Origin: a bacterium
GTDB taxonomy: Bacteria > Bacillota > Clostridia > Christensenellales > Borkfalkiaceae
Assembly (NCBI GenBank): GCA_963660735.1
Contig: CAVLAV010000001.1
Span: 1-32,789, forward strand
Reading direction: 5' to 3'
Length of the DNA stretch: 32,789 nucleotides
Below, piece by piece: positions 1,401 to 31,303 of the stretch. The notes under the pieces were generated by a model. The model did not search any database, was not told the origin of the DNA, and worked only from the letters and a program-made list of their open reading frames with translations. How positions within the stretch are numbered: position 1 is the stretch's first letter; each line of letters starts with the position of its first letter. The position numbers and the translations under genes are program-made.

Positions 1401-3370
1401 TGCGTGTAGATAAAGACAATAAACTTCAATTTTTTAAGGACTTGTTTGAAAACGCTAAGGGGCAGCAGACAGCCCTCCGCGACGATTTCGACAAGTGGAG
1501 CAAGCAGTACAAGGGCGATTTAACTATCGACAACAGCGACGAGCCCGCGCTTACAGGCAGAAACATTACTTACGAACTTATCGAGAGCCAGTTTTCAAGT
1601 TATTTGCCCTCTACCGCGGTAACGCCAGAGGTGTATTCCGAACGTAACGACAGGAACGCGAAAAGCATAGAAAGACTGCTTAAAAATAAGCGTAATCGAC
1701 TGCCTTTCGAGAAAATGAACGACATAGACGAACGGTATTCCCCGATTTACGGCGGCAGTATCTGGCTTGTTGAGTGGGATAACTCGATAAAGACACATAA
1801 CACGGTGGGCGACGTTAAAATAACGTGCTGGTCGCCGTCGCATTTCGTCGGGCAGCCTTGCATTTACGATATTGACGATATGGAATACTGCTTTATTACG
1901 TTTGAAACCACGAAAGAGGACTTAGTGCGTAAGTATGGCGTTTCAATAGACGTGGCAGACGACACCGAAAGCGAAAATGGCGGCGAAACTGACGAAACCG
2001 CAACCGTCAACGTTTGCTATTACAAAAACGACGAAGATAAAATCTGCCAATATATTTGGTCGGGCGATACCGAATTGCAGGACATTGAGGACTATTATTC
2101 GCGTAAGGTGTATGTTTGCAAGAACTGCGGGCGGCGTAAAGAATTATGCACCTGTGACAAGCCAGACTATGAATTGCAAGACGACGAATACGAGGAACTC
2201 GACCACGATATTGTACTTTCCGACGGCAGCGTGATACCCGCCGCCTCGCCTGTTATGAAAGACGGGCAAGTTTTAATGGAAGAATCGCAACAGCAAGCCG
2301 TTTTAGAGGACGGCAGCGTGGCTATGGACGAAGTAAACGGCATAATGATACCCGCTACCGTTCCAGTACAAGTGCCGAAACTCGAACGCACGAAACTGCC
2401 GTACTACACGCCGTCGAAATTTCCTATCATTATCAGGAAAAACACGTCGCAAGAGGATAGTCTTTTCGGTCAGTCCGATTGCGAGTTTATTCGTCCGCAA
2501 CAGCAGGCTATCAACAAAATCGAGAGCCGTATTCTTGAAAAACTTATGAACGCGGGCGTATACCCTACTGCGCCAGAAGATTATATCGGACAATTCGATA
2601 ACGGACTGTATAAGAACGTTATTAAAGTAGGCGAGGGAAATTATAAATTGTTCGGGCGCATTGATTTGCAGGTAGATTTAGGTCAGGATATTTCACAGTC
2701 GGAGCGGCTTTACCAACAATCAAAGCGCATTATGGGTATAACAGACAGTTATCAGGGGCAAGCCGATTCAACGGCTCAAAGCGGCAAGGCAAAGCAAATT
2801 CAGGTCAACCAGTCGGCTGGGCGGCTTGACAGCAAACGAAAAATGAAAAATGCCGCTTATGCCGAAATAGACGAGGTAATCTTCCTTTACTATCTTGCTT
2901 ATGCCGACGAGCCGCGCATTATGTCTTACGTTGACAGTATGGGCAGACTGCAAAACGCTCAATTCAATCGCTATGATTTTATCGAACGCGACGAGAACGG
3001 CGAATATTACTACAACACACAATATTTATTCGGAACGGACACTACGGGCGACGTAGAACAGTCAAGGGAAACGATTTGGAGCGAAAACCGCTTGAATTTC
3101 CAAAACGGCTGTTACGGAAACCCGCAAGAACTCGAAACGCTGCTTATTTTCTGGCAACAAATGGAAAAGCACCACTATCCAGACGCGAGAGATATGGTAG
3201 AGCGTATCAGAGGCATTATAGAGGCGCAAAGACAGCAACTCGAACAGCAACTTGCAGCGGAACAGCAGAAAAACCAAGACTTGCAAACGCAGGCATATAT
3301 AGAAAAAGAGCGTGCGGACGGCGCAGAGGGTTATCTGGACTACATAAGCAAACTGGGAGGTAAAGCATAA
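1400..3370 (+). CDS. Portal protein (putative)
   Basis: A 656-aa ORF directly after terL. Its ATG overlaps the terL stop (TAATG, 1398-1402) behind GGGAGG (1382-1387). The C-terminus is Q/E-rich and helical (QRQQLEQQLAAEQQKNQDLQ). The call rests on size and synteny, not on a named motif. Confidence 0.65.
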   Translation: MRVDKDNKLQFFKDLFENAKGQQTALRDDFDKWSKQYKGDLTIDNSDEPALTGRNITYELIESQFSSYLPSTAVTPEVYSERNDRNAKSIERLLKNKRNRLPFEKMNDIDERYSPIYGGSIWLVEWDNSIKTHNTVGDVKITCWSPSHFVGQPCIYDIDDMEYCFITFETTKEDLVRKYGVSIDVADDTESENGGETDETATVNVCYYKNDEDKICQYIWSGDTELQDIEDYYSRKVYVCKNCGRRKELCTCDKPDYELQDDEYEELDHDIVLSDGSVIPAASPVMKDGQVLMEESQQQAVLEDGSVAMDEVNGIMIPATVPVQVPKLERTKLPYYTPSKFPIIIRKNTSQEDSLFGQSDCEFIRPQQQAINKIESRILEKLMNAGVYPTAPEDYIGQFDNGLYKNVIKVGEGNYKLFGRIDLQVDLGQDISQSERLYQQSKRIMGITDSYQGQADSTAQSGKAKQIQVNQSAGRLDSKRKMKNAAYAEIDEVIFLYYLAYADEPRIMSYVDSMGRLQNAQFNRYDFIERDENGEYYYNTQYLFGTDTTGDVEQSRETIWSENRLNFQNGCYGNPQELETLLIFWQQMEKHHYPDARDMVERIRGIIEAQRQQLEQQLAAEQQKNQDLQTQAYIEKERADGAEGYLDYISKLGGKA

Positions 3371-5640
3371 TGGCAAAGAATATCCTTAACCAAAATTTGG
3401 CGTTAGGAACTGGTATAACGACAAATAAGACGAAAAAGATAAACAGCAGTACTGGTGGCTTGTATGCCGATTTTATCGGGAATACGGGCAGCGCGAAGAA
3501 TGTAACACTGCCTACGATAAATACGGGAAACGTAGGTTATGGCGATTTTATCAACGTTGCAACTCCATCTGTAAACAGTAAAAGCGGATATGTGGGGGCA
3601 TACACAGGCGAAGATACAAAACTTTCCAGCGTAACGCCCGCCGTGTCTGCTGTTAAGACTACGCCCTCTTACGGTTATAGCGATTACATAGGCGAGATAA
3701 CAAATCAGCCCGTACTTTCAACCTCGTTAAAAAATCAGGTGGAAATAAAGAAACCTGACTTTGCCAGCGGAGTAGTCGGAACAGTGGGCGGCGGCTTTTC
3801 AGGCGGCAATAAAGGCGGCGTAACGGACGAGGGCGTTATTGTGGGTAACCCGACCGTAGAAACAATGCCCGCAATCAAAACGTCTGGCGGTAGTAGTTCG
3901 TCGAGCAAAGCCGCGACTGAAAACGCAGATAATTTTGCGCCAGCGATACGAGAGATAATCGAGAATTTATATCCCGAAAAAAAGCAATCTACCGCAAAAT
4001 ATGCAGATTTTATAGATACGTCTAATCAATCGGTATCGGCAGAGAAAGCGGAGGCAACCACGCCCACAACTACGCCTGCAACACAAGCGCAAGCAGAAGA
4101 AACAAAAGCCGCTGAAACCGCGAACACGGCAACTGCCGCCGCCCAAGCCGAAGAAAGTAAGAGCGAGGACAGCAAAATGTCCTATGAGGACTATATTGCC
4201 GAAATGAAAAAGGGATATCAGGAACAACTCGACGCCGCAAACAAGCAGGCTGAGCAGACGAAAGCCCGCGCTATGGCAAACGCCGAAAATGCCTACGCAC
4301 AGAATAAAGCAACTTATGGAACAAACGCCGAAACGCTGGCTCAAATGGGCTTGACGGGCGGCGGCTATTCCGATTATTTACAAGCACAGGCTTACGCACA
4401 GAAACGTGCAGACGCTCAGGCTGCTACGGCGCAGGAAATCGCCTCTAAATCAAATAATCAAGCAACGTATCAGCAATATATTCAGGCGATGAACGAAAAA
4501 CTTGCAGATAAAATTCTTTACGACGAACGTCTTGCCGATCAGCGCAAGTATCAAGAAGAACAAACAAAAGCCGAAAGCGATAGAGAATATACAAAAAATA
4601 TTTACAATACGCTTTGGAGTGCTGTTCAGGACACGAACACCACTTATACGCCAGAAAGCATTAAAGCGTTAGGCGAAAAGGCAGGGCTGTCAAATGAAGA
4701 TATTACAACATTGACAAATATGCTTAACGCAACGCTTGCGCGAAAAACAGAGGAAGAGAAAAAGACGCAAGAGGAAGAAGAAAAAGTTAAAAATGAGGCG
4801 TTTGCGAAGAGCAGTTCGGCGGTTGCAGCAGATACAATTTCTTATATTGTTGCAAATAACGGTGGGCAATCTGAATATATCGAAAGTTTGAAATCTAACC
4901 TTACCGAGGAAGATTATAATAAACTTGTTTCTCAGAATCAGAAGAGCACGAGCGAATATTATACAACGGCAATAAAATCGGGCTACAATGTGAACACAAA
5001 CGAAATAGACAATATGTACAAAAAAGGCAATTTGTCCGAGGCTCAATACAACAAAATAAAGGCTCTTTGGAATGAATCGAGTATTGCGACAGATAATTCC
5101 GCTTTTGCTGACGGAAACGGGTATACGCTTTCTTTCAAAGACGCAAAAACGGTTATGAATACGGCAAAATCAAGTCAATGGATAAATGACGCGAATAAAA
5201 AAGCAATTGAATCAACCTATATGCGCCTTTACGCAAAGGATATAGCGAACGAAATAATGGTAAAATCGTCGGCAAAGGAAAAAGGCGGAAACGTCGTTGA
5301 TATTTATGCGTCCGACTTTAATACAAAAAAATTCGGCAGTTATAGCGGTATGGGCAAGTCGGGAAATACGCAAGAAAAATATGCTCAGTCTATCGTTTCG
5401 GACGCTAAGTCGGGCAAAATCAAAGCAGGCGATTACGTTATAATGAATTACGGAAACACTTGGGATGTCGAATGTATATATGTGTATATAGGCGACGGTA
5501 TATTTGTTAAGGCTAAGGACGGAAACGATAGTACCTATTTAAGCGGGGGGAAATTTGCAAGCGGTGTAAATTTCTATGTGCCGAACGGTTACAAAATCAA
5601 TATAAGTAGCAATATCGCTTTTCACGTTGATAAAAAATAG
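3370..5640 (+). CDS. Hypothetical head-module protein, 756 aa
   Basis: Translationally coupled to the portal gene (TAATG at 3368-3372, GGGAGG at 3355-3360). The N-terminal third is S/T/G-rich, the centre is A/Q/E/K-rich and coiled-coil-like, and the C-terminus looks globular. No family recognised. Confidence 0.5.
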   Translation: MAKNILNQNLALGTGITTNKTKKINSSTGGLYADFIGNTGSAKNVTLPTINTGNVGYGDFINVATPSVNSKSGYVGAYTGEDTKLSSVTPAVSAVKTTPSYGYSDYIGEITNQPVLSTSLKNQVEIKKPDFASGVVGTVGGGFSGGNKGGVTDEGVIVGNPTVETMPAIKTSGGSSSSSKAATENADNFAPAIREIIENLYPEKKQSTAKYADFIDTSNQSVSAEKAEATTPTTTPATQAQAEETKAAETANTATAAAQAEESKSEDSKMSYEDYIAEMKKGYQEQLDAANKQAEQTKARAMANAENAYAQNKATYGTNAETLAQMGLTGGGYSDYLQAQAYAQKRADAQAATAQEIASKSNNQATYQQYIQAMNEKLADKILYDERLADQRKYQEEQTKAESDREYTKNIYNTLWSAVQDTNTTYTPESIKALGEKAGLSNEDITTLTNMLNATLARKTEEEKKTQEEEEKVKNEAFAKSSSAVAADTISYIVANNGGQSEYIESLKSNLTEEDYNKLVSQNQKSTSEYYTTAIKSGYNVNTNEIDNMYKKGNLSEAQYNKIKALWNESSIATDNSAFADGNGYTLSFKDAKTVMNTAKSSQWINDANKKAIESTYMRLYAKDIANEIMVKSSAKEKGGNVVDIYASDFNTKKFGSYSGMGKSGNTQEKYAQSIVSDAKSGKIKAGDYVIMNYGNTWDVECIYVYIGDGIFVKAKDGNDSTYLSGGKFASGVNFYVPNGYKINISSNIAFHVDKK

Positions 5641-5656: not shown

Positions 5657-8600
5657 ATGGCAAAGCAATCTCTTTCGCAGATTTTTGGAAATGGAACGCA
5701 AGGTTTATCGAAAAACAAGCAAACGCTTTCTCAGGCATTCAACTTTTCGCCTACCGAACCGCGAAAAGAAGAAACGATTGATTACAATAACGGTGGTTTT
5801 CTCGGCGGCGTAGGTTATGTCGGCGGGCGTATCGGCTTAGGTGCTCTGGGTATTTTAGAGGGTATCTGGGACTATACCGCTGGCGGTATCGCTAAAATTT
5901 TTGGCGCAGACGAGTGGGCTGAACAACAGTTTGCCGACAATTTTACGGGCGATTTAACCAACGATTTGAATGAGTGGTACAACCCGTCCAAAGGCTGGCA
6001 GGTTGCAGGCGACGTCGCAGGCGGTATCGGCAACAGCCTTGTAGGTATGGCAGTTGTCGCTGGCGCGTCGCTTATATCTGGGGGAACATTGACTGCTCCT
6101 GTCGCAGCGGCTATTTCTGGCGCAACAATCGGTTTGGGAGCGGCAGGGCAATCTACCGCAGAGGCGTATCAGAAAACGGGCGAACTTGGTGGAAAAGAGT
6201 TTTTATATGGTGCTCTTTCTGGTATTACTGAGGCTGGACTTGAATATGTTTCGGGTGCGGCAGGTAAAGTCGGCGCGAAATTGTTTGCAAAACAAACGGC
6301 TAAAACCGTCGCAAAAAAGTCCATTGTGAAAGGGCTTTTAAGCGATTTTGCGGGCGAGGCTTTTGAGGAGGGAATGAGTGAAATTCTTGATCCGTATTTC
6401 CAACGCTGGACGCAAGTCGATCCCGACGCAAAAAACGCAACCGCGCAAGAGGTGGGCTATGCCGCATTGATAGGTGGTTTATCTGGCGTTATTATGGGCG
6501 GTTTTGGTGAGGCTGTTACAACCGTAAGGCAAATAAAACTCGGCAACAGTATTGCGCAAAATACTACTTCCGTAAACGAAACGCTTGATTATGCGAAAAG
6601 TTTTGCCGATTATGAACAGCAACACGCTACGGGGCGCGAAGTTTATACCGAAATTTCCGATTTGGTAACACGCTATCAGGCAGCGGATAAAGGCGACGGC
6701 ACTATATCTGTTGCACAAAAGAAAATGCTCGGTCAAATGAGCGTAGATATTGCTGCGCTTGTTCACGACGAGGGTATACAACGCAGCAAACAAAATATTG
6801 TTGCTAATGCCGACGAACTCGTCAACGCTATCAATGCGAGAGGTTATAAGGACGCAGACGGTAATGTAATTCATTTCGCAAATGCTCAGGAATTTGTCAA
6901 CAACGACGCGATTGTAACAAGGTTTGCAACAATGGACTACCTCGGACATTTACTTATGAGCAAAGATTCCGTTTATGACGCTATTTCAAATAAGCGGGCG
7001 GGCGAAATAATGCAAGCCGATTTTCGTAATTTCCAGAAAGAAGCAACGCCGCAGCAGAAAAAGAGCATAAACGACCTTTTCGGGATAGACGTTGACTCTA
7101 TTACTTACGACGATTTCGTAGATAAAATTCAAACAACGAATAGCGAAGTGCTTACGAGTAAAAAAGCCGAACTGTCGGCTATGTCGGCAGCGAAAAAGGA
7201 AATCGCGCGTGTTATCAATACAAACGAGGCGGTGGCAGACGCAGACACAATTACCGAAAAAACGGCATTTAAGGACGGTATAAGCGTATTTAAGGTAGGC
7301 GAAAAGACTTATGCAGGTATATCGAAAACTGCCGACGGGAAATATATGCTTTATTTAGACGGTAATATTTCTCACGTTCTTACGAAAACCGAACTCGTCA
7401 ACGCTATAAAAGCCCTTGTAACGCCACAGTCTGCCGCGACAAACGCTCAAACGAACGTCGGGCAGCCGCAACAGGCAAAACAAGCCGCCGCCCCCACTGT
7501 TGAAAATACGGAGGGGCAATCTTTCGTTGCGAAAAATACTGAGGCGACGAAAGAAAACGCGGCTCAGGGCGATAAAAAGTCTGTAAAACAGGCTGAAAAA
7601 GTAAAGGCTAAGAAGAAAAAGACTGCCAAAGAGAAAACCGAAAGTAAAAAAGCGGTGGAAAAATCGACGGAAACGAAAAAGACGACCGAAAAATCAACCG
7701 AAAAGGCGGCTGAGCCGAAGAAAGCGGAAAAAGAAACCACCAAAAAATCGGAGAGCGGCAAAGAAACGACCGAAAACAACGCAGACAACACCAATAGACA
7801 AAAAGAAATAAACAAACTGAAAGAAAGCCCCGTTGCGACGGAGCGCGTTATGGGCGAACTGTGCGATTTAGGCGTTGTTGATTACGATAAGGTTATTAAC
7901 ACGCAAGACGGACAGAATATCGACGCCGTTGCCGAGTACGCAATGGGCGATTTATCCGATTATGAACGGCAGGGCTTATATTCAGCAAAATCGCTGGCGA
8001 AAGCAATTTCCGAGCACGCCGACGAAATACGCGCGGGTAAAAAGCCTTACGTCGAAATTATGGATAGGGCAATCGAACTCGACGGCAAGCAAATGCCGAA
8101 ATGGTACAAAGAACAATATCATTCACAAAGCGCGGAAAGCACCGAACGGGCGGCGGCTAAGCCTACCCAAAAGAGCGAAACGTCAGAGAAAAAGTCTGCC
8201 GCAAAGAAAAGACCTAAACTCGATAAAGCGCGCGAAAGGCTTGTTTCCTTAACGCTGTCAAAAGACGTTCGGGAAAATTTACGCGGCGCGTATGTTATGA
8301 ACGGCGTTCAATATGTGGGCGACGGACTTTTTTGCGCTGCCTATACAGATACCGTGAGCGGGCTTACCGAGGCAAAGGGCGGTATTGATTTCGGGAACAT
8401 TATGGATAAATACAGGAACAGTAACGATATGCGCGAGGTTGTTATAGACGCAGACGCTATCCGTGCGGTTGTTCCCGCTAAAAAGTCCGAATTATCCATA
8501 AGTAAAATCGGCGACACTTACTATAACACGAAACTGGTGAGCCGAGTTATCGACACAATCGACAGTCCGCAGGCTTTTCTTACAGAACATAAACAAACAA

Positions 8601-11600
8601 AAGACGGTTTTAATATAGACGTGCTGTATATCAAAGGCAAAAACGGCGACGCTTGCATTATGCCTATGAAGCCTATGAATGGCGAAAGAATTAAAAGCGA
8701 TAGCGTAAAAATTGATTACACCGCGTCTTTTGCGGACGGAACGCAAGCCGCCGCCAAGACGGAGCAGACCGCAAAGCCAGTCAAGCAATCGAAAGCGAAA
8801 AAACAAGCCGAAAGCACGACTAAGACCGAAACAACGGATAAAAGCGCTGGAACGGAACTTAAAAAGGGTTTTGCCGACGGTAAAGGATATAAAGATTTCA
8901 CCGTTAAAGAATTTAAGGCTTTATCGAAAGACGTTCAGGCTTATTTTAGGGGCAAAGAGGCTTATTCCAAGAGTAAAAAGGGAAACGGAAAAGCAGTCGT
9001 GCTTATTCAGGGCGGCGAATTTTACACCGCGCTTTTCGACGACGCAAAGACGGTTTCGGACGCACTTTCGCTTACTCTTACGGGCAAAAATTCACAGGCG
9101 TATAGCGAACGTATTCAAACGACGGCTTTTTCTGTTGCTCAATTTGACGAAATGCAGTCAAAACTTGCCGCTGTTGGTTATGACGTTATAAAGACGAGTA
9201 TAGACAATCAGGGCGCAGGCACGTTGTATCAGGCAAAAACAGCCGATAGCGCGGCGAAAGAGGTTGCCGCGACGGACGCAACGGCAAAGACTGAAAAAGC
9301 CGCAAAAACGACCAAAAAGCAGGCTGATTTCGGAGAGAAAATCGGCGGTGCGCGTAAGGACGAATGGGCGGCGCGAGGGCTTACCTCTGCCGATATGGAG
9401 GGAATGAACGCTCGCGAAATTCAGAAGTATGCCAAGAAAGAGCGCGTGTGGAAACGTCCGAACTGGGAGCAGGTTGTTGCCGACGGCGGCGACAGAGGTT
9501 TATTGTACGCTCAAAACGAAATTTACAAATCTTTGGATACAACGCCGTCCTCGGCTTTCAGTTATCGGAATAAGTCCGAGGCAGATATTCTCGCTGCCGC
9601 GAAACTCTATGCCGACGAAATTACTGAGATTCGGAAAATGGCAGAAAATGCCAAGACTGCCGAAGATTTCAAGGATATGGGCGTAAAGTGGATAACCGAA
9701 AAAGGATATGCCGAACTCAAAAACGGTCGCTTGACGTGGACAGATAAATATTATCATAGCCCCGCACTTTACGGCGCACAATATCTGGGCGTTGTAGAGA
9801 GGGTGGCAAAACGTTTTGACAGCCTTAGCGAAAGTGCGCTTATGGAGGGGTTCGGCGTTCCGTCGGACAGTAAATTGCCGCGCGGATATGAAATTCGCAA
9901 GACCAGCAATTCGTTTTACGGCAGTAAAGCGGAAACGGGCAATTATTATATCGTCAAAAGCGGCTATCGCGTCGCCGTAGGCTTTAACACGGTTGAAGAG
10001 GCTATCGCTTACGGTAAAGAGCATTTCGGAACGGCTACGACGGCGGCAAAAGCGGGTAAACAGAGATATGTGCCCGAACAACTGTCAGAAGTGCACCGTG
10101 AGGGGCTCGATTATCGTCAGGGCAGAGATATTGCAGGCGACGACTATATACGCGACTTCGGAATAAAAGGCGGCGAATTTGGCAACTGGCTTTCCGAACT
10201 CGACAGAAAAACCTCGCTTAATTACGGCTACGACGCATTTTGCGACTTAGCAGACGCGCTCAGTATGGAAAAGACGGATATTTCGCTTAACGGAACGCTT
10301 AATATCGGTTTCGGCTCTCGCGGTCAAGGCTTAACGGGTGCGGCGGCACATTATGAGCCGTTGAGAAAGGTTATCAACCTTACGAAAATGAACGGCGCAG
10401 GCTCTCTTGCCCACGAGTGGTGGCACGCGTTCGAGGACTATATTTCGGGTGATACACACCAGTCGCAAATGTCGAGCGATTTAAGTAAGTTGCCGACAAA
10501 TACAAGAACTGCCGCCACCGAACTTATAAACACTATGCTTTATCGCGACGGTACGGTGGAAGAAAACGCTCTTGCAAGCCAAAAGCAAGCAGATAGAAAC
10601 CAGCAACGGCTGAAATATTATCTTGACAATAATTTTGCGGCATTAAACGGTAAAATGAGCAAGGAAACAATGCAAAATTATGTCAATCAAAAGTATTACA
10701 AGCGTATGGCGACCGAGGCAGATTTCAAACGTTTTGCCGAACTTAAAGAGCAGGCGCGTAAAGGCGACGTTCAGGCTGTTGCGAAATTCTATGACAACAA
10801 GCGTTCCGTAGTAGACGATTTGAGCGATTTGCAGAAAGAAATTACGGGTAAGGGCTTATCGAAAGAGGAAAGGCTCTCGCTTGCGCACGCCGTTCAGGAC
10901 GCAGGCTTAAAACCCGACGTTAAAGTAAAAGAGAAAACGGAATATTACAAAGACGCAATGAAATTAAGCACCGCAAGTCAAAAAGACGGCGGGTACTGGG
11001 ATTCTAACTGCGAAATGCTCGCAAGGGCGTTCGCGTCCTATATAACCGATAAAACGGCAAAGTCCAACGATTACCTTTCTGGGCATTCCGAGGGTGCGGT
11101 TCTTGCAGACGACGGAACGGTAGCGTATATAATGCCGCGAGGCGAAGAAAGAACGCGTATAAACGCGGCTTTCGATAAATTGTTTGCCGCCGCCAAAGAG
11201 GACGGACTTATCCACGAGAGTACGTCCGAAAAGCCGAAAAATACTTCCCGTTATGCGCTTTCCGAACAGGCAGAACTTAACAGTCAACCCGCAGGAAACA
11301 AAAGTCAGACCTTAAAACCGCTCGAAATGAAACGTGCCGAAATTTACGCAAGAAACAACGTAAAAGGCTACGAAAACCTTACTTACGGTGAGAAATTAGA
11401 GGTTGAGTGGACTATCGCGTCTGGGTGGCGTTATGGCGTGGATAACGTCAAAATAAAGCAAACGGCACAAATTGCCGCCGATACGGGTACTGGCATAGGG
11501 TTTGCAGATATTTCCGCTAAGAGCAGCGACGGTAAAGCGAAAGCCGTTGACGGCGTATGTTACTCGCGCAGCGGGCATAATACGATTTATTTAAGCCCCG

Positions 11601-14600
11601 ACAGCGTAAATTCCGTGGAAAAAATCACTCTTGAAGAACTTGCGCACGCTTTCGAGGGGACAGAGGGATATTCGGATATAGCAAAAATGGCAACCGAGTA
11701 TTACGACGCGCACCCCGCAGAAAAGGCGAAAATCGAGAACGCGTATAAGGAACTCTACAAGAACGAAGAGGCTTTATTTGCAGAGGAAATTTTACCGTCA
11801 GAACTCACGGCACATTATGTGAGAGAAATGCTCGGAAACCGCAATATGCTTGCAAAACTTACGGCAGAAAAGCCGACGTTTATACAACGTTGCTTAAACT
11901 GGCTTAAAGGCTTTAAGAAAAAAACCGCCGCCGTCGATACGACGGTTGAGGCAGACGTACAAATTCTCGAAAACAGATTTAAGACGTTGTATAATCAAAA
12001 TAAGGGCAATGTTGCAAACGGTATTACAAATGCAAGCCGAATGAGTATAGCGTCTATTGACGGCAAAGATACAGTTATTGTTGATACCGACCAGCATATT
12101 TTTGACGGCGTACAACGCGAAGAACTCGGCAACGTTGCAAGAAAATATATTCAAGAACGTTTCAGAGGTAAAACGATTGACGGAACGACGTACAGCAGAA
12201 TATCTGAAAAAGAGTATACTCACTCAAAAGATACGCAAAGATTATTCAACCAGAGCGGATCGGAATATTCGGCAAAAATGCGAGCGTCAACGGAACTTAC
12301 AAACCTTGTAAAGACGGGTGAACTTATCGGGCACGAAAGCGCAAAGCATACAAAACCTGTAAATGCTGGCGGCTTTAACAGGTATAATGTGTCTTTCATT
12401 CTTGACGGAAAAACTTTCAAGGGCGAATTGCTTATCGCACAGGGCAGCGACAATGTTGCTACTTTTTACGATATTGTAAAAATAAAAGAGAGCAATTCGA
12501 CCAGTAACAACACACAGGTTGCAGGGCGGTCGAACGCTCTCTCTAATAACAGTATATCCAAAAATGGCGAAAAAGTCAACAAGAAATATGCTTTGTCGTC
12601 GAAAACAGATTCAGAGGGGCGAGTTTTATCTGCCGAACAGCAAAAATATTTTGCAGACAGCAAAGTTACCGACAACGACGGAAACCTGCTTGTGGTGTAT
12701 CACGGAACGAATAATGATTTTTATACGTTTGATAGCGGAAGAGTAGGCAAAGGCATAGACCAGTTCGGCTCAGGTTATTATTTTACTACAAATAAAGACC
12801 ACGCAGGTGCTTACGGAAACAGGACGATAGAGGGCTACTTAAATCTTAAAAACCCGTTTATTATTGAGGTGGGCGACAACGGCGGTACGATAGACCAGTT
12901 TTATAGGCAGTCCGTAACGCAATCTCAGGCAGAGAAAATACTCAAAATGCACCCAGATATTTATAGTGCGGACGATAGCCCTTTGGGTAATTTCAGCGAG
13001 AGATATTGGACTGAGGGCGCGACTGAATCGGTAATAAAAGAAGTTGCCGCTCAAATGAATGAAATCGGAATGTTTATTGACAACACAATGTTTGGCTATT
13101 ATCCGAACGAGTTGAATGCTGCCATAAAGAAAGTGTTAGGTTACGACGGTATTCAGGTTAATTACGGTAAACACGAAAAATATTATGTTGCGTGGGAACA
13201 AAACCAGATAAAAGACGTAAAAAATACAAGTCCTACTACTGCCGCAGATATTCGGTACGCGCTTTCCGAAGAACAGCAGGCTAAACTTGACAGTACAAAA
13301 GGCTCGGATAAGGTTATGACGGAATTGCCGAACAGCAGAGTTTCGGTTAAAGACGTTATAACAAAAGAGGCTACGAAAGAACAGTTTGCAGAACAAGTCA
13401 AGAGCGATACAAAACAATACACAGAGGGTTTTCAAATCGCTATGACGAATGCGCAGGCTGGCGTGGAGCGAGTTATGACCGAGGCGGGAATTAAGGACGC
13501 TACCGCAATAACAAACTATGTAAGAGCAGGAAAAAATGCAGGTATGAACGCATTAGATCCGAGTGGAGCACAATTTAGTTTTGACGGCGAAACGCGTTTA
13601 GGTGAATCGTGGGGCAAAATCTGGCAGCCGATTTATAATCTTGCAAAAAAAGACGGGCAGGCTTACGCAAAATTTCAGGAATATTTGTTGCATTATCATA
13701 ATATCGACCGTATGGCGGTCGGGAAACCCGTGTTTGGTGAGAATGTAACGGCGGCAGATAGCCGCGCGGCGATAGCGCAGATTGAATCGGTTTACCCGCA
13801 GTTTAAGAAAATTGCAGAAAAAGTCTGGAAGTTTAACGATAATAATTTGCAACTTTCGGTTGATAGCGGTATGTATTCGCAGGAATACGCAGACCACCTG
13901 AGGGAACTCTATCCGCACTACGTTCCGACGCTCAGAGAGGAGCACGCGGGCGGTATTGCAACCATACAGGGTAAAAACAACATTCGCGTAAACAATGCAA
14001 AAAAACAAGCAATCGGCGCAGATACTCGTATTTTGCCGATTGACGATACCATTGCTCAGCAGACTTTACAAAAATATGCGTCGGCAAGAACAAATAAATT
14101 GCTTGTAGACGTGCTTAACGGTAAAGCGCACGACGAGTTCAGAGTTGTTTCAACAGAGGACGCAAGCATTGACGTTGATACAGATACGCTTGTAAAAACC
14201 TTTGAGGATAAGACAAAAAATACCCACCAGATAACATTTTATCACGACGGTAAACGCGTTACGGTGGAAACGTCGCGAAACTTCTACAAAGGTATTGAGG
14301 CGTTCCAGCCGTCTGGCGATAGCGCGTTCAACAACGCTATCCTCAACGGCGCGGCGAAAGTAAACTCTGCGTTTAAGAAACTCGTTACGTCGTTTAACCC
14401 GTTCTTCTCATTCTTCCGTAACCCGATACGAGATATTCAGGACGCAGGGCTTTATACCCGCTATCCGCTCAGGAAATTTACGTCGGCGTATATGGAGGCG
14501 AGAAAGCAAATCGCAAGTGACGGTGTTTACTGGCAAGAGGCAAAGGCGGCGGGTATTACTTCCGCAAGCGTTTATGACTACGAAAAAGGTTTGAATTATA

Positions 14601-16198
14601 AAAATATGAGTGCTATCAAAAAAGCGGGGCAAAAGGTAGAGGCAGCCTCGAACGCTATTGAAATGGCACCCAGACTTGCAGAATACATTTGCTCGCGTGA
14701 GGCTGGTTTATCAGTTCAGGAATCGCTTTTGAGAGCGCAAGACGTTACCACGAATTTCGGCAGAGGCGGTATATTCGCAAAGAAACTCAACGCAACGATT
14801 ATGCCGTTCTTAAACCCCGCGATTCAAGGCTTTTCAAAAATGGTAAGAGCGTATACGGGTAAAGACGCGGCACAATCGTGGATAAATCTTATCGTTCGTA
14901 GTGTTATGCTCGGTATAGCGGCAACCGCTCTTAATGATTTGCTGCACGATGACGACGAAGATTATAACAATCTTTCCGATTACGTTAAAGAAAATAACTA
15001 TGTTTTGTCGTTCGGCGACGGGAATTTCCTTAAAATTCCGAAAGGCAGAGTGGTAAGCGTTTTCGGCGGCGCGTATCTGCGTTCGAAATGGTATGCTCAG
15101 GGCGACGAGGACGCTTGGGAGGGATATTTAAGCAGTATAGCCTCAGCGGTTACACCTGTTGATAACTTTACGCGTACTATTTTCAGTCCGATTACGGATA
15201 TAAAAACAAATACGACGTGGTATGGCGGCACTATCGAGGGGCAAAAATTCGACAGCACGAAACCTTCCGACAGATACGACGAAAGCACGAGTAATATCGC
15301 TATCTGGCTCGGCAAAGTGTTTAATTATTCGCCTAAGAAGATTGACTATTTGCTCGACCAATATGGCGGTATCGTAACGGATATTGTTTTACCAGCAACG
15401 ACAATGCAAGCGGAAAGCGGCATTGTATCGAAAAACTTGCTTGCGAACTCTACAACAAATAGCAGGTGGAGCACGGAATTTTACTCTCAGATAGAAAAAT
15501 ATACCTATAAAAAGACCGACGGCGACGCACAGGCGAAAGCGACGGTAAAATATCTGAACAGCGTTAAAAGCACTATTTCGGATATGTACACGCAAAAACG
15601 CCAAATACAGACCGATACGACGTTATCAAAAGACGAAAGACTAAGCCAGACGCAGGTTATTCAGGCGGCTATCAACACTCTAATGAAAGACAGTTTGACA
15701 AATGCAAAGTATTTATACGAAGAACTCGGCAAATACGACCTTTCCGACGATAATTTCGATATGAGTTATCTCGACGCGATAAGTACCGTAGTAGGCGCAG
15801 AATATGCGTTAAAATCGTATAATAAAACCGTGTATGAAAAGGCGGCAAACCTTAACAAACTCGGTATAAGTTACGATACATATTACGATTACTATTTTGC
15901 GACGAAAAGTATCGAGGCAGACGTTACGTCAAGCGGCAAAACGGTAAGCGGCTCTCGAAAACAAAAGTTGATACAATACACAATGTCAACCGATTTGGAT
16001 ATGGTGCAAAAACTCATTCTTATTATGAGTTCGGGGTACTCAATATCCGACGGCGATATTTCTGGCGTGTCGGCAAAGCAAGTAAAGCGTGTTGTGGCGC
16101 AATACATTGCAAAATCTGGGCTTTCTTCCGAAGAAAAAACCGCACTTGCAAAAATGTGCGGGCTTACGGTGAAAAACGGAAAGGTATATCTTTCTTAA
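5657..16198 (+). CDS. Giant multidomain polyvalent protein, 3513 aa (putative capsid-packaged, ejected effector)
   Basis: A single uninterrupted 10.5-kb ORF with AGGAG 7 nt upstream of the ATG. Modules readable in the translation:
- GxxxG-rich hydrophobic N-terminus
- K/E/T low-complexity linker
- beta-clamp-like segment (...AAYTD..., ...ACIMPMKP)
- MutS-domain-I-like GGEFYTALFDDAK
- HEWWH zincin motif at 10412-10426
- ART-like VVYHGT...GSGYYFT...YYVAWEQNQIK
- C-terminal ~1000 aa with a TM helix (WINLIVRSVMLGIAATALNDLL)
It sits in the portal-proximal head module. Confidence 0.75.
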   Translation: MAKQSLSQIFGNGTQGLSKNKQTLSQAFNFSPTEPRKEETIDYNNGGFLGGVGYVGGRIGLGALGILEGIWDYTAGGIAKIFGADEWAEQQFADNFTGDLTNDLNEWYNPSKGWQVAGDVAGGIGNSLVGMAVVAGASLISGGTLTAPVAAAISGATIGLGAAGQSTAEAYQKTGELGGKEFLYGALSGITEAGLEYVSGAAGKVGAKLFAKQTAKTVAKKSIVKGLLSDFAGEAFEEGMSEILDPYFQRWTQVDPDAKNATAQEVGYAALIGGLSGVIMGGFGEAVTTVRQIKLGNSIAQNTTSVNETLDYAKSFADYEQQHATGREVYTEISDLVTRYQAADKGDGTISVAQKKMLGQMSVDIAALVHDEGIQRSKQNIVANADELVNAINARGYKDADGNVIHFANAQEFVNNDAIVTRFATMDYLGHLLMSKDSVYDAISNKRAGEIMQADFRNFQKEATPQQKKSINDLFGIDVDSITYDDFVDKIQTTNSEVLTSKKAELSAMSAAKKEIARVINTNEAVADADTITEKTAFKDGISVFKVGEKTYAGISKTADGKYMLYLDGNISHVLTKTELVNAIKALVTPQSAATNAQTNVGQPQQAKQAAAPTVENTEGQSFVAKNTEATKENAAQGDKKSVKQAEKVKAKKKKTAKEKTESKKAVEKSTETKKTTEKSTEKAAEPKKAEKETTKKSESGKETTENNADNTNRQKEINKLKESPVATERVMGELCDLGVVDYDKVINTQDGQNIDAVAEYAMGDLSDYERQGLYSAKSLAKAISEHADEIRAGKKPYVEIMDRAIELDGKQMPKWYKEQYHSQSAESTERAAAKPTQKSETSEKKSAAKKRPKLDKARERLVSLTLSKDVRENLRGAYVMNGVQYVGDGLFCAAYTDTVSGLTEAKGGIDFGNIMDKYRNSNDMREVVIDADAIRAVVPAKKSELSISKIGDTYYNTKLVSRVIDTIDSPQAFLTEHKQTKDGFNIDVLYIKGKNGDACIMPMKPMNGERIKSDSVKIDYTASFADGTQAAAKTEQTAKPVKQSKAKKQAESTTKTETTDKSAGTELKKGFADGKGYKDFTVKEFKALSKDVQAYFRGKEAYSKSKKGNGKAVVLIQGGEFYTALFDDAKTVSDALSLTLTGKNSQAYSERIQTTAFSVAQFDEMQSKLAAVGYDVIKTSIDNQGAGTLYQAKTADSAAKEVAATDATAKTEKAAKTTKKQADFGEKIGGARKDEWAARGLTSADMEGMNAREIQKYAKKERVWKRPNWEQVVADGGDRGLLYAQNEIYKSLDTTPSSAFSYRNKSEADILAAAKLYADEITEIRKMAENAKTAEDFKDMGVKWITEKGYAELKNGRLTWTDKYYHSPALYGAQYLGVVERVAKRFDSLSESALMEGFGVPSDSKLPRGYEIRKTSNSFYGSKAETGNYYIVKSGYRVAVGFNTVEEAIAYGKEHFGTATTAAKAGKQRYVPEQLSEVHREGLDYRQGRDIAGDDYIRDFGIKGGEFGNWLSELDRKTSLNYGYDAFCDLADALSMEKTDISLNGTLNIGFGSRGQGLTGAAAHYEPLRKVINLTKMNGAGSLAHEWWHAFEDYISGDTHQSQMSSDLSKLPTNTRTAATELINTMLYRDGTVEENALASQKQADRNQQRLKYYLDNNFAALNGKMSKETMQNYVNQKYYKRMATEADFKRFAELKEQARKGDVQAVAKFYDNKRSVVDDLSDLQKEITGKGLSKEERLSLAHAVQDAGLKPDVKVKEKTEYYKDAMKLSTASQKDGGYWDSNCEMLARAFASYITDKTAKSNDYLSGHSEGAVLADDGTVAYIMPRGEERTRINAAFDKLFAAAKEDGLIHESTSEKPKNTSRYALSEQAELNSQPAGNKSQTLKPLEMKRAEIYARNNVKGYENLTYGEKLEVEWTIASGWRYGVDNVKIKQTAQIAADTGTGIGFADISAKSSDGKAKAVDGVCYSRSGHNTIYLSPDSVNSVEKITLEELAHAFEGTEGYSDIAKMATEYYDAHPAEKAKIENAYKELYKNEEALFAEEILPSELTAHYVREMLGNRNMLAKLTAEKPTFIQRCLNWLKGFKKKTAAVDTTVEADVQILENRFKTLYNQNKGNVANGITNASRMSIASIDGKDTVIVDTDQHIFDGVQREELGNVARKYIQERFRGKTIDGTTYSRISEKEYTHSKDTQRLFNQSGSEYSAKMRASTELTNLVKTGELIGHESAKHTKPVNAGGFNRYNVSFILDGKTFKGELLIAQGSDNVATFYDIVKIKESNSTSNNTQVAGRSNALSNNSISKNGEKVNKKYALSSKTDSEGRVLSAEQQKYFADSKVTDNDGNLLVVYHGTNNDFYTFDSGRVGKGIDQFGSGYYFTTNKDHAGAYGNRTIEGYLNLKNPFIIEVGDNGGTIDQFYRQSVTQSQAEKILKMHPDIYSADDSPLGNFSERYWTEGATESVIKEVAAQMNEIGMFIDNTMFGYYPNELNAAIKKVLGYDGIQVNYGKHEKYYVAWEQNQIKDVKNTSPTTAADIRYALSEEQQAKLDSTKGSDKVMTELPNSRVSVKDVITKEATKEQFAEQVKSDTKQYTEGFQIAMTNAQAGVERVMTEAGIKDATAITNYVRAGKNAGMNALDPSGAQFSFDGETRLGESWGKIWQPIYNLAKKDGQAYAKFQEYLLHYHNIDRMAVGKPVFGENVTAADSRAAIAQIESVYPQFKKIAEKVWKFNDNNLQLSVDSGMYSQEYADHLRELYPHYVPTLREEHAGGIATIQGKNNIRVNNAKKQAIGADTRILPIDDTIAQQTLQKYASARTNKLLVDVLNGKAHDEFRVVSTEDASIDVDTDTLVKTFEDKTKNTHQITFYHDGKRVTVETSRNFYKGIEAFQPSGDSAFNNAILNGAAKVNSAFKKLVTSFNPFFSFFRNPIRDIQDAGLYTRYPLRKFTSAYMEARKQIASDGVYWQEAKAAGITSASVYDYEKGLNYKNMSAIKKAGQKVEAASNAIEMAPRLAEYICSREAGLSVQESLLRAQDVTTNFGRGGIFAKKLNATIMPFLNPAIQGFSKMVRAYTGKDAAQSWINLIVRSVMLGIAATALNDLLHDDDEDYNNLSDYVKENNYVLSFGDGNFLKIPKGRVVSVFGGAYLRSKWYAQGDEDAWEGYLSSIASAVTPVDNFTRTIFSPITDIKTNTTWYGGTIEGQKFDSTKPSDRYDESTSNIAIWLGKVFNYSPKKIDYLLDQYGGIVTDIVLPATTMQAESGIVSKNLLANSTTNSRWSTEFYSQIEKYTYKKTDGDAQAKATVKYLNSVKSTISDMYTQKRQIQTDTTLSKDERLSQTQVIQAAINTLMKDSLTNAKYLYEELGKYDLSDDNFDMSYLDAISTVVGAEYALKSYNKTVYEKAANLNKLGISYDTYYDYYFATKSIEADVTSSGKTVSGSRKQKLIQYTMSTDLDMVQKLILIMSSGYSISDGDISGVSAKQVKRVVAQYIAKSGLSSEEKTALAKMCGLTVKNGKVYLS

Positions 16199-16236: not shown

Positions 16237-16995
16237 TTACTCGTTCTCTAACGGAATACTTTCTTGTTGCCACAGAAAATATCCGTCTACGATATTTTTC
16301 ATAAAAAAATCAGGATCGTTGTCAAATTCATTGTTGTCCAATTCGTCTAAAATTAACTGAAATATATCAGTAAATTGTTTGTCTGTTGTTGCTTGTCTTG
16401 TATAGAGATATATAAGCCCGTCTGCATTGAGAATATAATACAAGCAAAGCGCAGTGAGGGCGTTGCTGCGATTTTCTAAATTTTGTAAAGCATAACCGTA
16501 ATATTCTTGTAACAATGATATTTTTTCTTCTAAGCAGCGACGTTTCTTTTCAAAGTTATCAACCTTGCCCAAATCTTCTGCTATTCCGCGTGCTATATTC
16601 ATAAAGTCGCTACGCGATTTTAATATGACAAGTTTTGTAATATCGGCAATTTCTTCTTTGGGCTTTTGACTTGGTTTGTTCAGCGAGGGTACAATCATAA
16701 AGCGATAGCATAACGACAAAATAAATATAATTACACCTATGCCGAAACAAATTATACCAAATATAGGAGCGACTTCCGATAACGTTAATAAAAAGCCTAA
16801 TAAACACAAGCCCAGCCCGCCATAGAGCAAATTTTCAAAAACTCGTTTATTATGAGGGTTCATATCAAACCTGCCTAAAATAAAAAGTGCGCCGACCGAA
16901 GTCAGCGCACAAAAAACGCAAACTTCGTCGTCGCCAAACAACTTACAAAGATATATGTATGTAACTCTATCCCGTAAAATCTGCGTTTTTATCAA
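16237..16995 (-). CDS. Membrane-anchored hypothetical protein on the opposite strand (moron-like)
   Basis: The only convincing minus-strand gene inside the phage block. The longest ORF starts at TTG 16995. An internal ATG at 16863 (MNPHNKRVF...) is an alternative start. It has two clear TM helices (LLYGGLGLCLLGFLLTL, IFGIICFGIGVIIFILSL) followed by a ~140-aa helical soluble domain. It is flanked by its own promoter and terminator. Confidence 0.6.
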   Translation of the reverse strand: MIKTQILRDRVTYIYLCKLFGDDEVCVFCALTSVGALFILGRFDMNPHNKRVFENLLYGGLGLCLLGFLLTLSEVAPIFGIICFGIGVIIFILSLCYRFMIVPSLNKPSQKPKEEIADITKLVILKSRSDFMNIARGIAEDLGKVDNFEKKRRCLEEKISLLQEYYGYALQNLENRSNALTALCLYYILNADGLIYLYTRQATTDKQFTDIFQLILDELDNNEFDNDPDFFMKNIVDGYFLWQQESIPLENE

Positions 16996-17099
16996 ATTTA
17001 ATTAGGAATAGAGTTGTTGCGCAAAAAATAACGCAAGTTACACTCTCTCAGTGTAGAAAGAGTGCGATTTTATTCTTTTGTAAGTTATTTGGCTACTCT

Positions 17100-17128
17100 A
17101 TTATAGCATAACGATAAAATATTTGCAA
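17100..17128 (-). promoter_or_regulatory. Sigma70-type promoter for the minus-strand gene
   Basis: On the minus strand the sequence reads TTGCAA (17128-17123), a 17-nt spacer, then TATAAT (17105-17100). Confidence 0.55.
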
Positions 17129-17244
17129 TGAAAATGCGGGTGTCTAACAATGTTAAACTTGCCGTTTTCTCATTAAAACGCTTGAAAAGATAAACGTGCT
17201 GGGGCAAAGTAATATTTTTCGGGTACAATTTTGAGTAAATAGTA

Positions 17245-17253
17245 TGATATAAT
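17245..17253 (+). promoter_or_regulatory. Candidate extended -10 promoter for the Com-like gene
   Basis: TGaTATAAT at 17245-17253, about 30 nt upstream of the RBS. No good -35 element, so this is weak evidence. Confidence 0.35.
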
Positions 17254-17284
17254 TACAATGCAAAACGGTGTAAAGGAGCGCATT

Positions 17285-17455
17285 ATGTCTTTTCAACTTG
17301 AAGAAATACCGAAAGATACAGAGGTAAAAAAGGCGATTTGCCCGCATTGTAAAAAGACGATACACGCAGTCGGTTTTACGAAAGGCAGTAAATGTCAGGG
17401 AATAACCGTTGTCTGTAAGTTCTGCGGGCGTATTTATTCCATAAAAGCCGATTAG
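17285..17455 (+). CDS. Small zinc-ribbon protein, phage Mu Com-like
   Basis: ATG at 17285 lies 7 nt after AAGGAG. The 56-aa product has two CxxC pairs (CPHCKK ... CKFCGR) spaced like Com-type zinc ribbons. The upstream M at 17258 in the ORF track has no RBS. Confidence 0.5.
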   Translation: MSFQLEEIPKDTEVKKAICPHCKKTIHAVGFTKGSKCQGITVVCKFCGRIYSIKAD

Positions 17456-17500
17456 CAAAAATTGCATACACACATTTAGTGCCAAAGTCCGAAGAGATTT

Positions 17501-17547
17501 GAGCCCCCACTCTTGCCAGTAAGAGATTAGGGGGCTCATTTTCTTTT
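17501..17547 (+). terminator. Intrinsic terminator after the Com-like gene
   Basis: GAGCCCCC (17501-17508) pairs with GGGGGCTC (17530-17537). There is inner CTCTT/AAGAG pairing, and the stem is followed by ATTTTCTTTT. Confidence 0.75.
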
Positions 17548-17740: not shown

Positions 17741-18640
17741 ATGGCTGGCGAAATTGACGAAAAGAATTTATCGCTTTTAGACGGTGAAGATACCGACGAC
17801 AGTGAGGAAATCGAGAACGACGAGAATTTTGACCTTGACGGCGATTCAGACGAGGAACTCGGTGCGGCTGCCGACGAAGAATCGGAAACGGACGAAAGCG
17901 AAGATACCGACGACGAGGTAGATCTTGACGAGGACGACGAACTGGACGAATCCGAAAACTCGGACGAGCAAAGCGACGAAAACGGCGGCTCGGACGATAG
18001 CGGCGAAGATAACAACAGCACCGCCGCCGACAGTCAGGACGAAAAAGACGCTATCATAGCAAGCCTTAAAAAACAAAACAGTAAATTCCGCGCTCAGGCA
18101 AAGGAAACGCTGGTAAAACTCGGTATTAAGGTTGACGGTGATAACGTTGAGGAGGCATTAGAGCAAGCGGCAGCGGAATCGGACGGCGTAAGCCTTGAAG
18201 AATACCGCAAGACGAAGAACGACGCGGCAGAAGTCGAACAGGCGCGCGAAACTCTCAGACGGCAAAAGTTTGAAACTCTCGCGGCAAACGACCTTGCCGA
18301 ATTAAAAAAATCGTTCCCCGACCTGCTTGAAACTAAGCAGATTAAAGACGCTTTTACGAATATCGACGAATTTGCGAAATTCGGACGGCTCAGAGATAGC
18401 GGAATAGACGCAAAAACCGCATATCTGGCAGTTAAAGGTAACGACGTAAGGGCGAAACAGTCCGCGGCGGCAACGCAAAAAGCGGCAAACGACGGCAAAA
18501 ATCACATAACGTCCGTTGCGCCGAAAAAGGCAGCGGGCGACGGCATTACAATGCCGAAATCTACTCTCAAAGAGTGGCGGGAAATGTTCCCGCGCAAAAC
18601 GGATAAAGAGATTATCCAACTTTACAAAAAAACTTTATAA
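17741..18640 (+). CDS. Head scaffolding protein (putative) with a hyper-acidic N-terminal extension
   Basis: AAGGAGG RBS. Located two genes upstream of the capsid gene. The C-terminal ~200 aa are helical and charged (AQAKETLVKLG..., ETLRRQKFETLAANDLAELKK), which is typical of scaffolds. The first ~100 aa are roughly half D/E. Confidence 0.55.
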   Translation: MAGEIDEKNLSLLDGEDTDDSEEIENDENFDLDGDSDEELGAAADEESETDESEDTDDEVDLDEDDELDESENSDEQSDENGGSDDSGEDNNSTAADSQDEKDAIIASLKKQNSKFRAQAKETLVKLGIKVDGDNVEEALEQAAAESDGVSLEEYRKTKNDAAEVEQARETLRRQKFETLAANDLAELKKSFPDLLETKQIKDAFTNIDEFAKFGRLRDSGIDAKTAYLAVKGNDVRAKQSAAATQKAANDGKNHITSVAPKKAAGDGITMPKSTLKEWREMFPRKTDKEIIQLYKKTL

Positions 18641-26607: not shown

Positions 26608-26616
26608 GGGGGCTAA

Positions 26617-26634
26617 CGGGGGAAACTTCCCCCG
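26617..26634 (+). promoter_or_regulatory. GC-rich hairpin downstream of the VR (DGR target-recognition hairpin; may double as a terminator)
   Basis: CGGGGGA aact TCCCCCG: a 7-bp stem with a 4-nt loop, 23 nt after the end of VR/TR homology and followed by an A/T-rich run. Confidence 0.6.
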
Positions 26635-26693
26635 AAAAAAGAAAAATTTTTCTCACAGTTATCTATAAAAATGGGGTTATAAACCGAACACAG

Positions 26694-26807
26694 CCGTGTT
26701 GAACTGCGGCGGGAACTGGAATAACGGCGCGAATGCGGGGCTCTGGAACTGGAATGGGAACAACACCGCGTCGAACGCGAACTCGAACATCGGCGGGCGA
26801 ATTTGTT
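26694..26807 (+). repeat. DGR template region (TR)
   Basis: The invariant, adenine-rich copy of the VR. It has 28 adenines, 24 of them in 12 AAY (Asn) codons when read in the VR frame. It is non-coding, located between the target gene and the RT. Confidence 0.9.
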
Positions 26808-26946
26808 GCAAAAGGAATAAAAACAGGGTTTATAATTCACAGACCACTTGGTCAGAAATAGCCGTAAAGAGTGTGGTTTAGTAAGTCGAAAGAATTTGAA
26901 ACACCATAAGGCAGCAACAAAGACTCTTTGAAAAATAAAGGACACA

Positions 26947-31244: not shown

Positions 31245-31273
31245 TTGAAAAATGTTAGACAATGTGGTATAAT
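31245..31273 (+). promoter_or_regulatory. Near-consensus sigma70 promoter of the transposase gene
   Basis: TTGAAA (31245-31250), a 17-nt spacer, then TGgTATAAT with the -10 hexamer at 31268-31273. Confidence 0.7.
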
Positions 31274-31303
31274 AGCGGTACTTTCACGACGGAGGGAAAA
31301 TAT

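Follow-up and report, generated by a model that had tools for sequence, protein, structure and literature searches.

A single gene at 5657-16198 (+) of the window analysed here, a 32,789-nucleotide stretch of contig CAVLAV010000001.1 (assembly GCA_963660735.1) from a bacterium of the Clostridia, encodes a protein of 3,513 amino acids (aa). The window covers ~33 kb of a phage genome, the genomes of relatives being ~45 kb. We conclude that the giant protein is probably a member of the LPD38 group of phage-type polyvalent proteins, one in which a fixed delivery frame holds exchangeable effector cassettes and which is packaged and injected. An earlier note on this DNA, made from the sequence alone, had proposed a polyvalent protein, and that assignment is now carried by four domains scoring above their Pfam cut-offs (LPD38, ART-PolyVal, LPD1 and MutS_I) and by the location of the gene among late and virion genes.

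A giant head-module gene encodes a polyvalent protein

Phage-type polyvalent proteins combine 2-15 unrelated functional domains, including LPD domains, and their genes typically adjoin virion genes; LPD38 is listed among the domains confined to the phage type (Iyer et al, 2017, J Bacteriol, PMC5512222). The giant protein agrees with this description, being a multi-domain protein with LPD domains that is encoded among terL, portal, scaffold-like and major head genes. It has in common with the described class LPD1, LPD3, a weakly matched LPD5, LPD38, an ART-PolyVal domain with the H-Y-D residues and MutS-I, along with a putative zincin peptidase.

The coding sequence is one ATG-started open reading frame (ORF; 386.7 kDa, pI 6.6) with a good ribosome-binding site (AGGAG, 6 nt upstream of the start) and the same base composition as its flanks. 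Chance cannot account for an uninterrupted reading frame of this length (3,513 codons) in DNA of ~45% guanine plus cytosine (GC). Full-length versions (3,458-3,513 aa, 83-93% identity), all unannotated, are present on at least 45 independent public metagenome contigs, which shows that the gene is real and not an assembly chimera or artefact. The single ORF of 3,513 aa described in the earlier note is therefore borne out.

A fixed frame surrounds exchangeable cargo

The layout of the protein was compared by BLAST mapping with 263 relatives, namely 120 family proteins and 143 wider representatives. (All nucleotide positions given for parts of the giant protein are on the forward strand.) A Gly/Ala-rich hydrophobic N-terminal domain (aa 35-310; 5759-6586) was found in 120/120 family proteins and 66/143 representatives, the best representative matches being 44-51% identical. 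The adjoining unannotated region, N2 (aa 311-620; 6587-7516), was present in 120/120 and 20/143, respectively, and a zincin-like domain that the earlier note had overlooked, here called zincin-2 (aa 1870-2125; 11264-12031), in 114/120 and 43/143. A mostly helical C-terminal module of ~950 aa (aa 2560-3513; 13334-16195) was present in every protein of both sets (120/120 and 143/143). These four parts form a fixed frame around exchangeable cargo.

Simpler members of the family begin with the N-terminal domain and continue with N2, zincin-2, cargo and C-terminal module, in that order. In the clade of the giant protein, N2 and zincin-2 are separated by an insertion of ~1,250 aa, consisting of an unannotated block (s715, found in 84/120 family proteins), MutS_I and a cassette containing a first zincin, zincin-1. 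Individual cargo units come and go: the MutS_I block is missing from seven relatives (P0023, P0047 and P0050-54) and the ADP-ribosyltransferase (ART) from three (P0060, P0061 and P0063), while the slot filled here by LPD3 is taken by PBECR3 in P0047 and by MuF_C in P0067, and P0083 carries PBECR5 following its ART. The exchange of LPD3 for PBECR3 is visible in the DNA itself. Positions 9231-12009 and 12532-16198 of the window are 91% identical to the locus encoding P0047 (L006), whereas the intervening LPD3-coding stretch, 12010-12531, bears no resemblance to the 600 nt found at the same place there, which code for PBECR3. Comparison with relatives for module shuffling, which the earlier note had suggested, thus revealed exchanged cassettes and one swap confirmed at the DNA level.

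At one further locus (L008, 5181-14768) the Gly-rich N-terminal domain is a separate ORF of 352 aa, lying 33 nt upstream of a 2,831-aa ORF that holds the remainder of the protein, including PBECR3 and ART. This arrangement reflects either a genuine division of the gene or an error in the sequence.

The C-terminal module is shared with giant proteins of cultured podophages

HMMER searches with the C-terminal module against 1.84 billion representative proteins returned 9,469 clusters at E<=1e-3, of which 1,500 were at E<=1e-30. The proteins are 850-3,500 aa long and almost always carry the module at their C terminus. Within it, Pfam LPD38 (aa 3100-3252; 14954-15412) was matched with 114 bits against a cut-off of 27. 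An AlphaFold model built from 39 sequences was mostly helical, with a predicted local distance difference test (pLDDT) score of 82.6 and a predicted template modelling score of 0.73. Foldseek aligned this model with viral LPD38 models in BFVD over ~900 columns (template modelling score, TM, 0.55-0.68; E 6e-52 to 1e-17). These matches included Ralstonia phage Alix and Escherichia phage PTXU04, and some bore names pointing to RelA/SpoT, LT_GEWL and methylase cargo. A fold shared over ~900 columns indicates that Pfam LPD38, with its 189 positions, is only the core of a module of ~950 aa. Both the LPD38 score at the C-terminal end and the shared extended fold place the giant protein in this family. 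By tblastn the module was also found, at 20-33% identity, in podophage proteins of Vibrio, Pelagibacter and Bacillus (Pagevirus). All PHROG matches of the giant protein were to unannotated giant-protein families, and a phmmer search of the whole protein against PDB sequences gave no match.

The LPD38 C-terminal module is held in common, as judged by tblastn and fold matching, with a series of giant podophage proteins: phi24B gp47 (2,811 aa), the DarB-like JC1 gp69 and Bcep22 gp75 (~4,500 aa), the DarB-like protein of Ralstonia phage GP4 (3,224 aa) and PTXU04 gp25 (2,198 aa). Phages of the 933W/Bcep22/GP4 type are likewise podophages, and the giant gene makes up ~20% of their genomes. Their hosts are Proteobacteria, whereas those of the family studied here are Clostridia, and their cargo consists of lytic transglycosylase and methylase-helicase domains, with neither the ART nor the MutS-I found in the giant protein.

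Three of these relatives inform the fate of the protein. JC1 gp69 (4,515 aa), whose relatives are tied to the giant protein by tblastn, was represented by 51 unique peptides from CsCl-purified virions (PMC9144972). The phi24B gp47 protein, linked to the giant protein by shared Pfam domains (LPD5 and LPD1 as well as LPD38), was detected in virions by proteomics and was invisible in the cryo-EM map, and the authors propose that it is an ejection protein (bioRxiv 10.64898/2026.04.10.717836). Finally, knock-down of the polyvalent gene of PTXU04, whose product is a structural match to the C-terminal model, strongly lowered plating efficiency (PMC11879866).

The HExxH motif is intact in one zincin-like domain and decayed in the other

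The zincin-1 cassette (aa 1225-1848; 9329-11200) begins with an otherwise unannotated head (aa 1225-1433) containing a conserved FGEKIGGARKD, followed by a weak LPD5 match (aa 1434-1496; Pfam E 2e-4), a partial CLCA_X-like zincin (aa 1480-1607; NCBIfam E 4e-37) and LPD1 (aa 1774-1848; Pfam 61 bits, cut-off 27). The HExxH motif from which the earlier note read a peptidase is located here: it reads HEWWH (aa 1586-1590; 10412-10426), lies within the CLCA_X match, and has H1586, E1587 and H1590 invariant among relatives.

Zincin-2, the frame zincin, differs in this respect. Relatives at <=61% identity read TLHELTHxLEG, an HExxH motif, whereas the giant protein and its closest clade have EELAH (aa 1993-1997; 11633-11647), in which the first His is replaced by Glu; E2049 downstream is invariant. 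Members that retain HExxH gave weak matches to DUF6782 (3.5e-4), Peptidase_M78 (3.5e-3) and SprT-like (0.058), and a PDB profile search with zincin-2 returned nothing below E 0.1. The metal-binding motif of zincin-2 has decayed, while the catalytic signatures of zincin-1 (HEWWH) and of the ART (H-Y-D) are intact. Since zincin-1 and an intact zincin-2 occur together in P0055, P0060, P0064 and others, the decay in this clade looks recent, and it may reflect redundancy following the acquisition of zincin-1.

The cargo includes ADP-ribosyltransferase, LPD3 and MutS_I domains

The ART-like domain of the earlier note proved to be ART-PolyVal (aa 2339-2527; 12671-13237), matched in Pfam with E 3e-20 and 73.8 bits against a cut-off of 31.2. 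The active site described for ART-PolyVal consists of H in strand 1, Y in strand 2 and D in strand 5 (Iyer et al, 2017). The corresponding residues here are H2349 (in VVYHGT), Y2374/2375 (in GSGYYF) and D2497, which fit this H-Y-D, or Tox-ART-HYD2-like, configuration; H2349 and D2497 are invariant in relatives and the Tyr of GSGYYF is conserved in most, not all.

The earlier note had described a nuclease-like module at about 12040-12495. This region (aa 2131-2279; 12047-12493) is LPD3 in Pfam (aa 2156-2263), not PBECR: when trimmed, it scores 27.2 bits against a cut-off of 27, and eight of nine homologues also match. D2145, K2207, H2231, Y2271 and D2272 are invariant, and the AlphaFold model is confident (pLDDT ~90), showing a hairpin, helices and a four-stranded sheet. 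A PDB profile search with LPD3 returned nothing below E 0.1. With the combined zincin-2 and LPD3 model, the best Foldseek match in the PDB, to a contact-dependent inhibition toxin complex, had E 0.09 with a poor global alignment (TM 0.17); matches to ZMPSTE24 and NTF2-like proteins were also insignificant and no fold was assigned. No nuclease family or fold was matched, and a nuclease function of LPD3 is neither supported nor excluded.

The DNA-binding-like domain noted earlier corresponds to MutS_I (aa 1102-1177; 8960-9187), with Pfam E 2e-11 and 39 bits against a cut-off of 20.6. The mismatch-recognition motif of MutS, GDFYE in Escherichia coli, reads GEFYT at aa ~1120-1135 when the translation is inspected by eye, retaining the Phe but not the Glu.

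The remaining parts are without annotation. The cargo block s715 (aa 718-1030; 7808-8746) divides into a helical part (aa 718-835) and an alpha/beta part (aa 858-1030). No Pfam or PDB match was obtained for the block; profile searching of the PDB with aa 858-1030 gave nothing below E 0.1, and Pfam scans of homologues of this part gave nothing either. The N-terminal domain has invariant E, G and D positions (EGIxDY and GEAFEEG), yet neither it nor its homologues matched Pfam and a PDB profile search returned nothing below E 0.1; a tblastn search with it against phages gave no match, possibly through low-complexity masking. The low-complexity linkers of the earlier note were found as a K/E/T/A-rich stretch at aa 621-717 (7517-7807) and as similar stretches at aa 1026-1070 and 1184-1232.

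A short motif recurs at domain borders

Several domain borders in the second half of the protein carry a related pentapeptide. RYALS stands between LPD1 and zincin-2 (aa 1865-1869; 11249-11263), KYALS between LPD3 and the ART (aa 2310-2314; 12584-12598) and RYALS again between the ART and the C-terminal module (aa 2533-2537; 13253-13267), while a degenerate RMSIA (aa 2128-2132) precedes LPD3 at the border with zincin-2. The pattern [RK]YA[LVI]S thus occurs three times in the giant protein, against 0.03 expected from composition. The last copy is in a linker, and the C-terminal model is disordered just after it. Among 38 non-redundant relatives, the strict motif followed 17 of 22 zincin-1 ends and 9 of 18 ART ends, the latter count rising to 17 of 18 when the pattern was loosened; the background was ~0.02 per 50-aa window. 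DIRYA is kept even after ART domains that are only 28-38% identical. Because the three motif sites differ at synonymous DNA positions, the signal resides in the peptide rather than in any recombination sequence, and selection would act on the peptide. The motif may be a cleavage or docking site.

Proposed delivery and release of effectors

Iyer et al (2017) proposed for the class that the proteins are delivered with the DNA and that a peptidase frees the cargo. Applied to the giant protein, this model suggests the following course. Judging from the relatives and from the position of the gene, the protein would be made late, together with the head proteins, be packed inside the capsid, and leave at infection through the portal and tail channel of a podophage that lacks a tape measure. 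The anatomy of the protein points to later steps, in which packaging and envelope crossing would be the task of the Gly-rich N-terminal domain together with the helical C-terminal module of ~950 aa, a zincin would cut the polypeptide in its linkers, possibly at RYALS-type junctions, and the cut would free a MutS-I DNA-binding unit, an LPD3 effector and an ADP-ribosyltransferase that could act on host targets early. Neutralisation of host defences, which the earlier note had mentioned for polyvalent proteins, would be a further inference, the relatives supporting packaging and essentiality but not an anti-defence activity.

A number of observations weigh against this interpretation. The support for packaging comes from relatives and from gene position, and the cultured-phage relatives studied by proteomics resemble the giant protein in the C-terminal module alone, where they are 20-33% identical to it. 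When the giant proteins of phages GP4 and Palmer were searched (hmmsearch) with N-terminal-domain and zincin-2 profiles, no match was obtained, and we therefore do not claim the full frame for the cultured relatives. Foldseek gave no significant PDB match for the C-terminal model (best E 0.23); with no comparable structure solved for the module, a conduit role is put forward purely by analogy. Of the glycine-zipper and transmembrane segments proposed in the earlier note, the Gly-rich hydrophobic N-terminus stood, but its hydropathy is only borderline for transmembrane helices. The CLCA_X match of zincin-1 scores 128, below the model cut-off of 260, and the Pfam model for the peptidase of the class, MPTase-PolyVal, finds no match in the giant protein. 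Finally, the junction motif was defined after the data had been seen. A tetrapeptide repeat test on this protein alone was not significant (four tetrapeptides occurring at least three times, against 2.3 in shuffles), the motif showed no enrichment in the wider representative family, where 9 copies were observed and 7.9 expected, and it could merely be inherited or travel with the cassettes.

The protein might instead be mainly an essential structural ejection protein, a stand-in for a tape measure or conduit whose enzymes act on the envelope or are dispensable and which carries no effectors. The frame is indeed far more conserved than the cargo, the podovirus-type phage has no tape-measure gene within the window, and on a laboratory host the PTXU04 homologue proved essential. 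A conduit with a peptidoglycan-degrading peptidase was proposed by the phi24B authors, and in Bacillus phage Palmer a gene for a peptidoglycan-degrading NlpC/P60 protein directly precedes the gene with the LPD38 C-terminal module. We nevertheless consider a purely structural role unlikely. Among the cargo are the DNA-binding MutS_I and an ART whose catalytic residues are intact, domains with cytoplasmic targets; in close relatives, predicted RNases (PBECR3, PBECR5 and MuF_C) have been swapped in; and the rapid turnover of cassettes between 91%-identical backgrounds looks like conflict-driven diversification. A structural frame and an effector cargo are, moreover, compatible with each other.

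It is considerably harder to see the giant protein as a late cytoplasmic protein that stays unpackaged and acts within the cell that makes it, where it might, for example, protect DNA, help heads to mature or shut off the host. A chain of 387 kDa uses capsid volume, which would favour leaving it outside, but homologues of the C-terminal module are present in the purified virions of JC1 and phi24B, and the gene lies between the portal and the scaffold and capsid genes, next to virion genes as is typical of phage polyvalent genes; we regard this explanation as very unlikely. A prophage-borne polymorphic toxin secreted by the lysogen against competitors, as might be imagined from the modular build, the exchangeable toxin-like domains (ART, and PBECR in relatives) and the occurrence of some relatives in contigs of 125-211 kb that are probably prophages, is scarcely credible given that Pfam found no secretion trafficking domain (LXG, Rhs/YD, PT-VENN or similar), that no adjacent immunity gene was recognised and that the gene sits within the head module, with which it is conserved.

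Relation to described systems

Injection of effectors by a fixed frame, as favoured here, can be set beside several known systems. The capsid-internal proteins of P22 (gp7, gp16 and gp20) and T7 (gp14, gp15 and gp16) and the N4 virion RNA polymerase are ejected ahead of or with the DNA by phages that have no tape measure, and the N4 polymerase, an injected enzyme of ~3,500 aa, is similar in size to the giant protein. No similarity of sequence or fold to these ejection proteins was found, and the analogy is purely functional. In MARTX and other modular autoprocessing toxins, conserved ends bracket exchangeable effectors that a built-in protease is thought to free. Their sequences and folds are unrelated to those of the giant protein, whose delivery would be by the virion rather than by secretion.

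Other identities were considered and rejected. P1 DarB is characterised by LPD36, an N6-adenine methylase and an SF2 helicase module; scans with Pfam and NCBIfam found no methylase or helicase family that would make the protein DarB-like in this sense, and neither an RNA polymerase domain as in the N4 virion enzyme nor the MuF domain of an SPP1 gp7-type head protein fusion was found in Pfam and PHROG scans. The earlier note had named a single known structural family over the whole length, such as a tape measure, as the result that would speak against it; the profile scans gave no tape-measure match in Pfam or PHROG and no single structural family along the protein.

Within the polyvalent class, the giant protein departs from the common pattern. 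Its MutS-I lacks the ArdC-N partner reported in ~80% of cases, a minority arrangement in the survey of Iyer et al (2017), the MPTase-PolyVal model finds no match, and of its two zincin-like domains one has lost the HExxH motif. The earlier note had suggested that the domain combination may not have been described. The same Pfam string is present in dozens of public proteins, none of them informatively named, and the combination is within the combinatorial range already described for what is a known class of protein. The frame-plus-cargo layout, the extent of the LPD38 module, the decayed zincin-2 and the junction motif do not appear in those parts of the published accounts available to us and represent an incremental addition.

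Genomic neighbourhood

The gene order of the earlier note, in which the giant gene follows terL, the portal gene and one other gene, was confirmed, as was the lack of a tape-measure gene, none resembling one being present within the ~33-kb window. A terL fragment (69-1400) lies upstream of a P22-type portal gene (1400-3370, +; Pfam P22_portal, E 4.9e-10), which is followed by an ORF of 756 aa (3370-5640, +) between the portal and polyvalent genes. The 756-aa product is low-complexity in its N-terminal third and has a long Q/A/E-rich helical, coiled-coil middle; profile scans gave no family match, and a weak NlpC/P60 match at aa 664-718 (E 0.005) was not accepted. Downstream of the giant gene are an acidic scaffold-like protein (17741-18640) and the major head protein (19086-20135, +), followed by genes for a weak SU10-adaptor-like protein, an 882-aa virion protein and tail fibres. 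The 756-aa and 882-aa proteins had no significant match among PDB sequences (best E 0.49). In the profile scans the portal and adaptor matches are of podovirus type, and relatives keep the same gene synteny around the giant gene. Megablast of the giant gene against 50,697 phage records gave no match.

Directly after the giant gene is a patch of low GC content (37%; 16237-17539, -) with two reverse-strand ORFs. One, of 252 aa, has at least two hydrophobic segments resembling transmembrane helices; the other, of 128 aa, is doubtful. At this position relatives have a different reverse-strand gene (113 aa, Flg_new), and JC1 and GP4-type phages likewise have two reverse-strand genes following the giant gene. 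The patch may be a moron or immunity slot. A PAPS-reductase-like gene (L001, 5-799; L007, 4282-5007) is a recurrent companion in phages with such giant proteins, being present in a Clostridia relative (weak Pfam match) as well as in Ralstonia phage GP4 and Burkholderia phage JC1.

Further downstream the window contains a diversity-generating retroelement (25498-27990). It comprises a tail protein gene (25498-26607; phrog_5302, E 9e-66) with a variable repeat at its end (26480-26598), a template repeat (26694-26812) that is 85% identical to the variable repeat, all differences being at template adenines, and a reverse transcriptase (26947-27990; phrog_1423, E 3e-88). Close to where the window ends, but still within the phage region, is a transposase-like ORF of 355 aa (31262-32329; phrog_8463, E 2e-26).

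Implications for phage delivery of enzymes

Polyvalent proteins are a predicted major route by which phages deliver enzymes at infection, and very few have been studied experimentally. The clean split between frame and cargo, together with the candidate processing motifs, makes the delivery-and-release model experimentally concrete. Pfam LPD38 covers only a fifth of the ~950-aa module, which is present in thousands of phage protein clusters and whose structure is unsolved. As a tentative extension, which at present we find somewhat improbable, the N-terminal domain, the frame zincin and the C-terminal module may together form a self-contained effector-injection device, with the RYALS junctions as sites of both recombination and cleavage. 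If true, a very large group of podophages, most of them uncultured, would possess an injection device that bears no relation to the known ejection proteins and that is a virion-borne counterpart of modular autoprocessing toxins.

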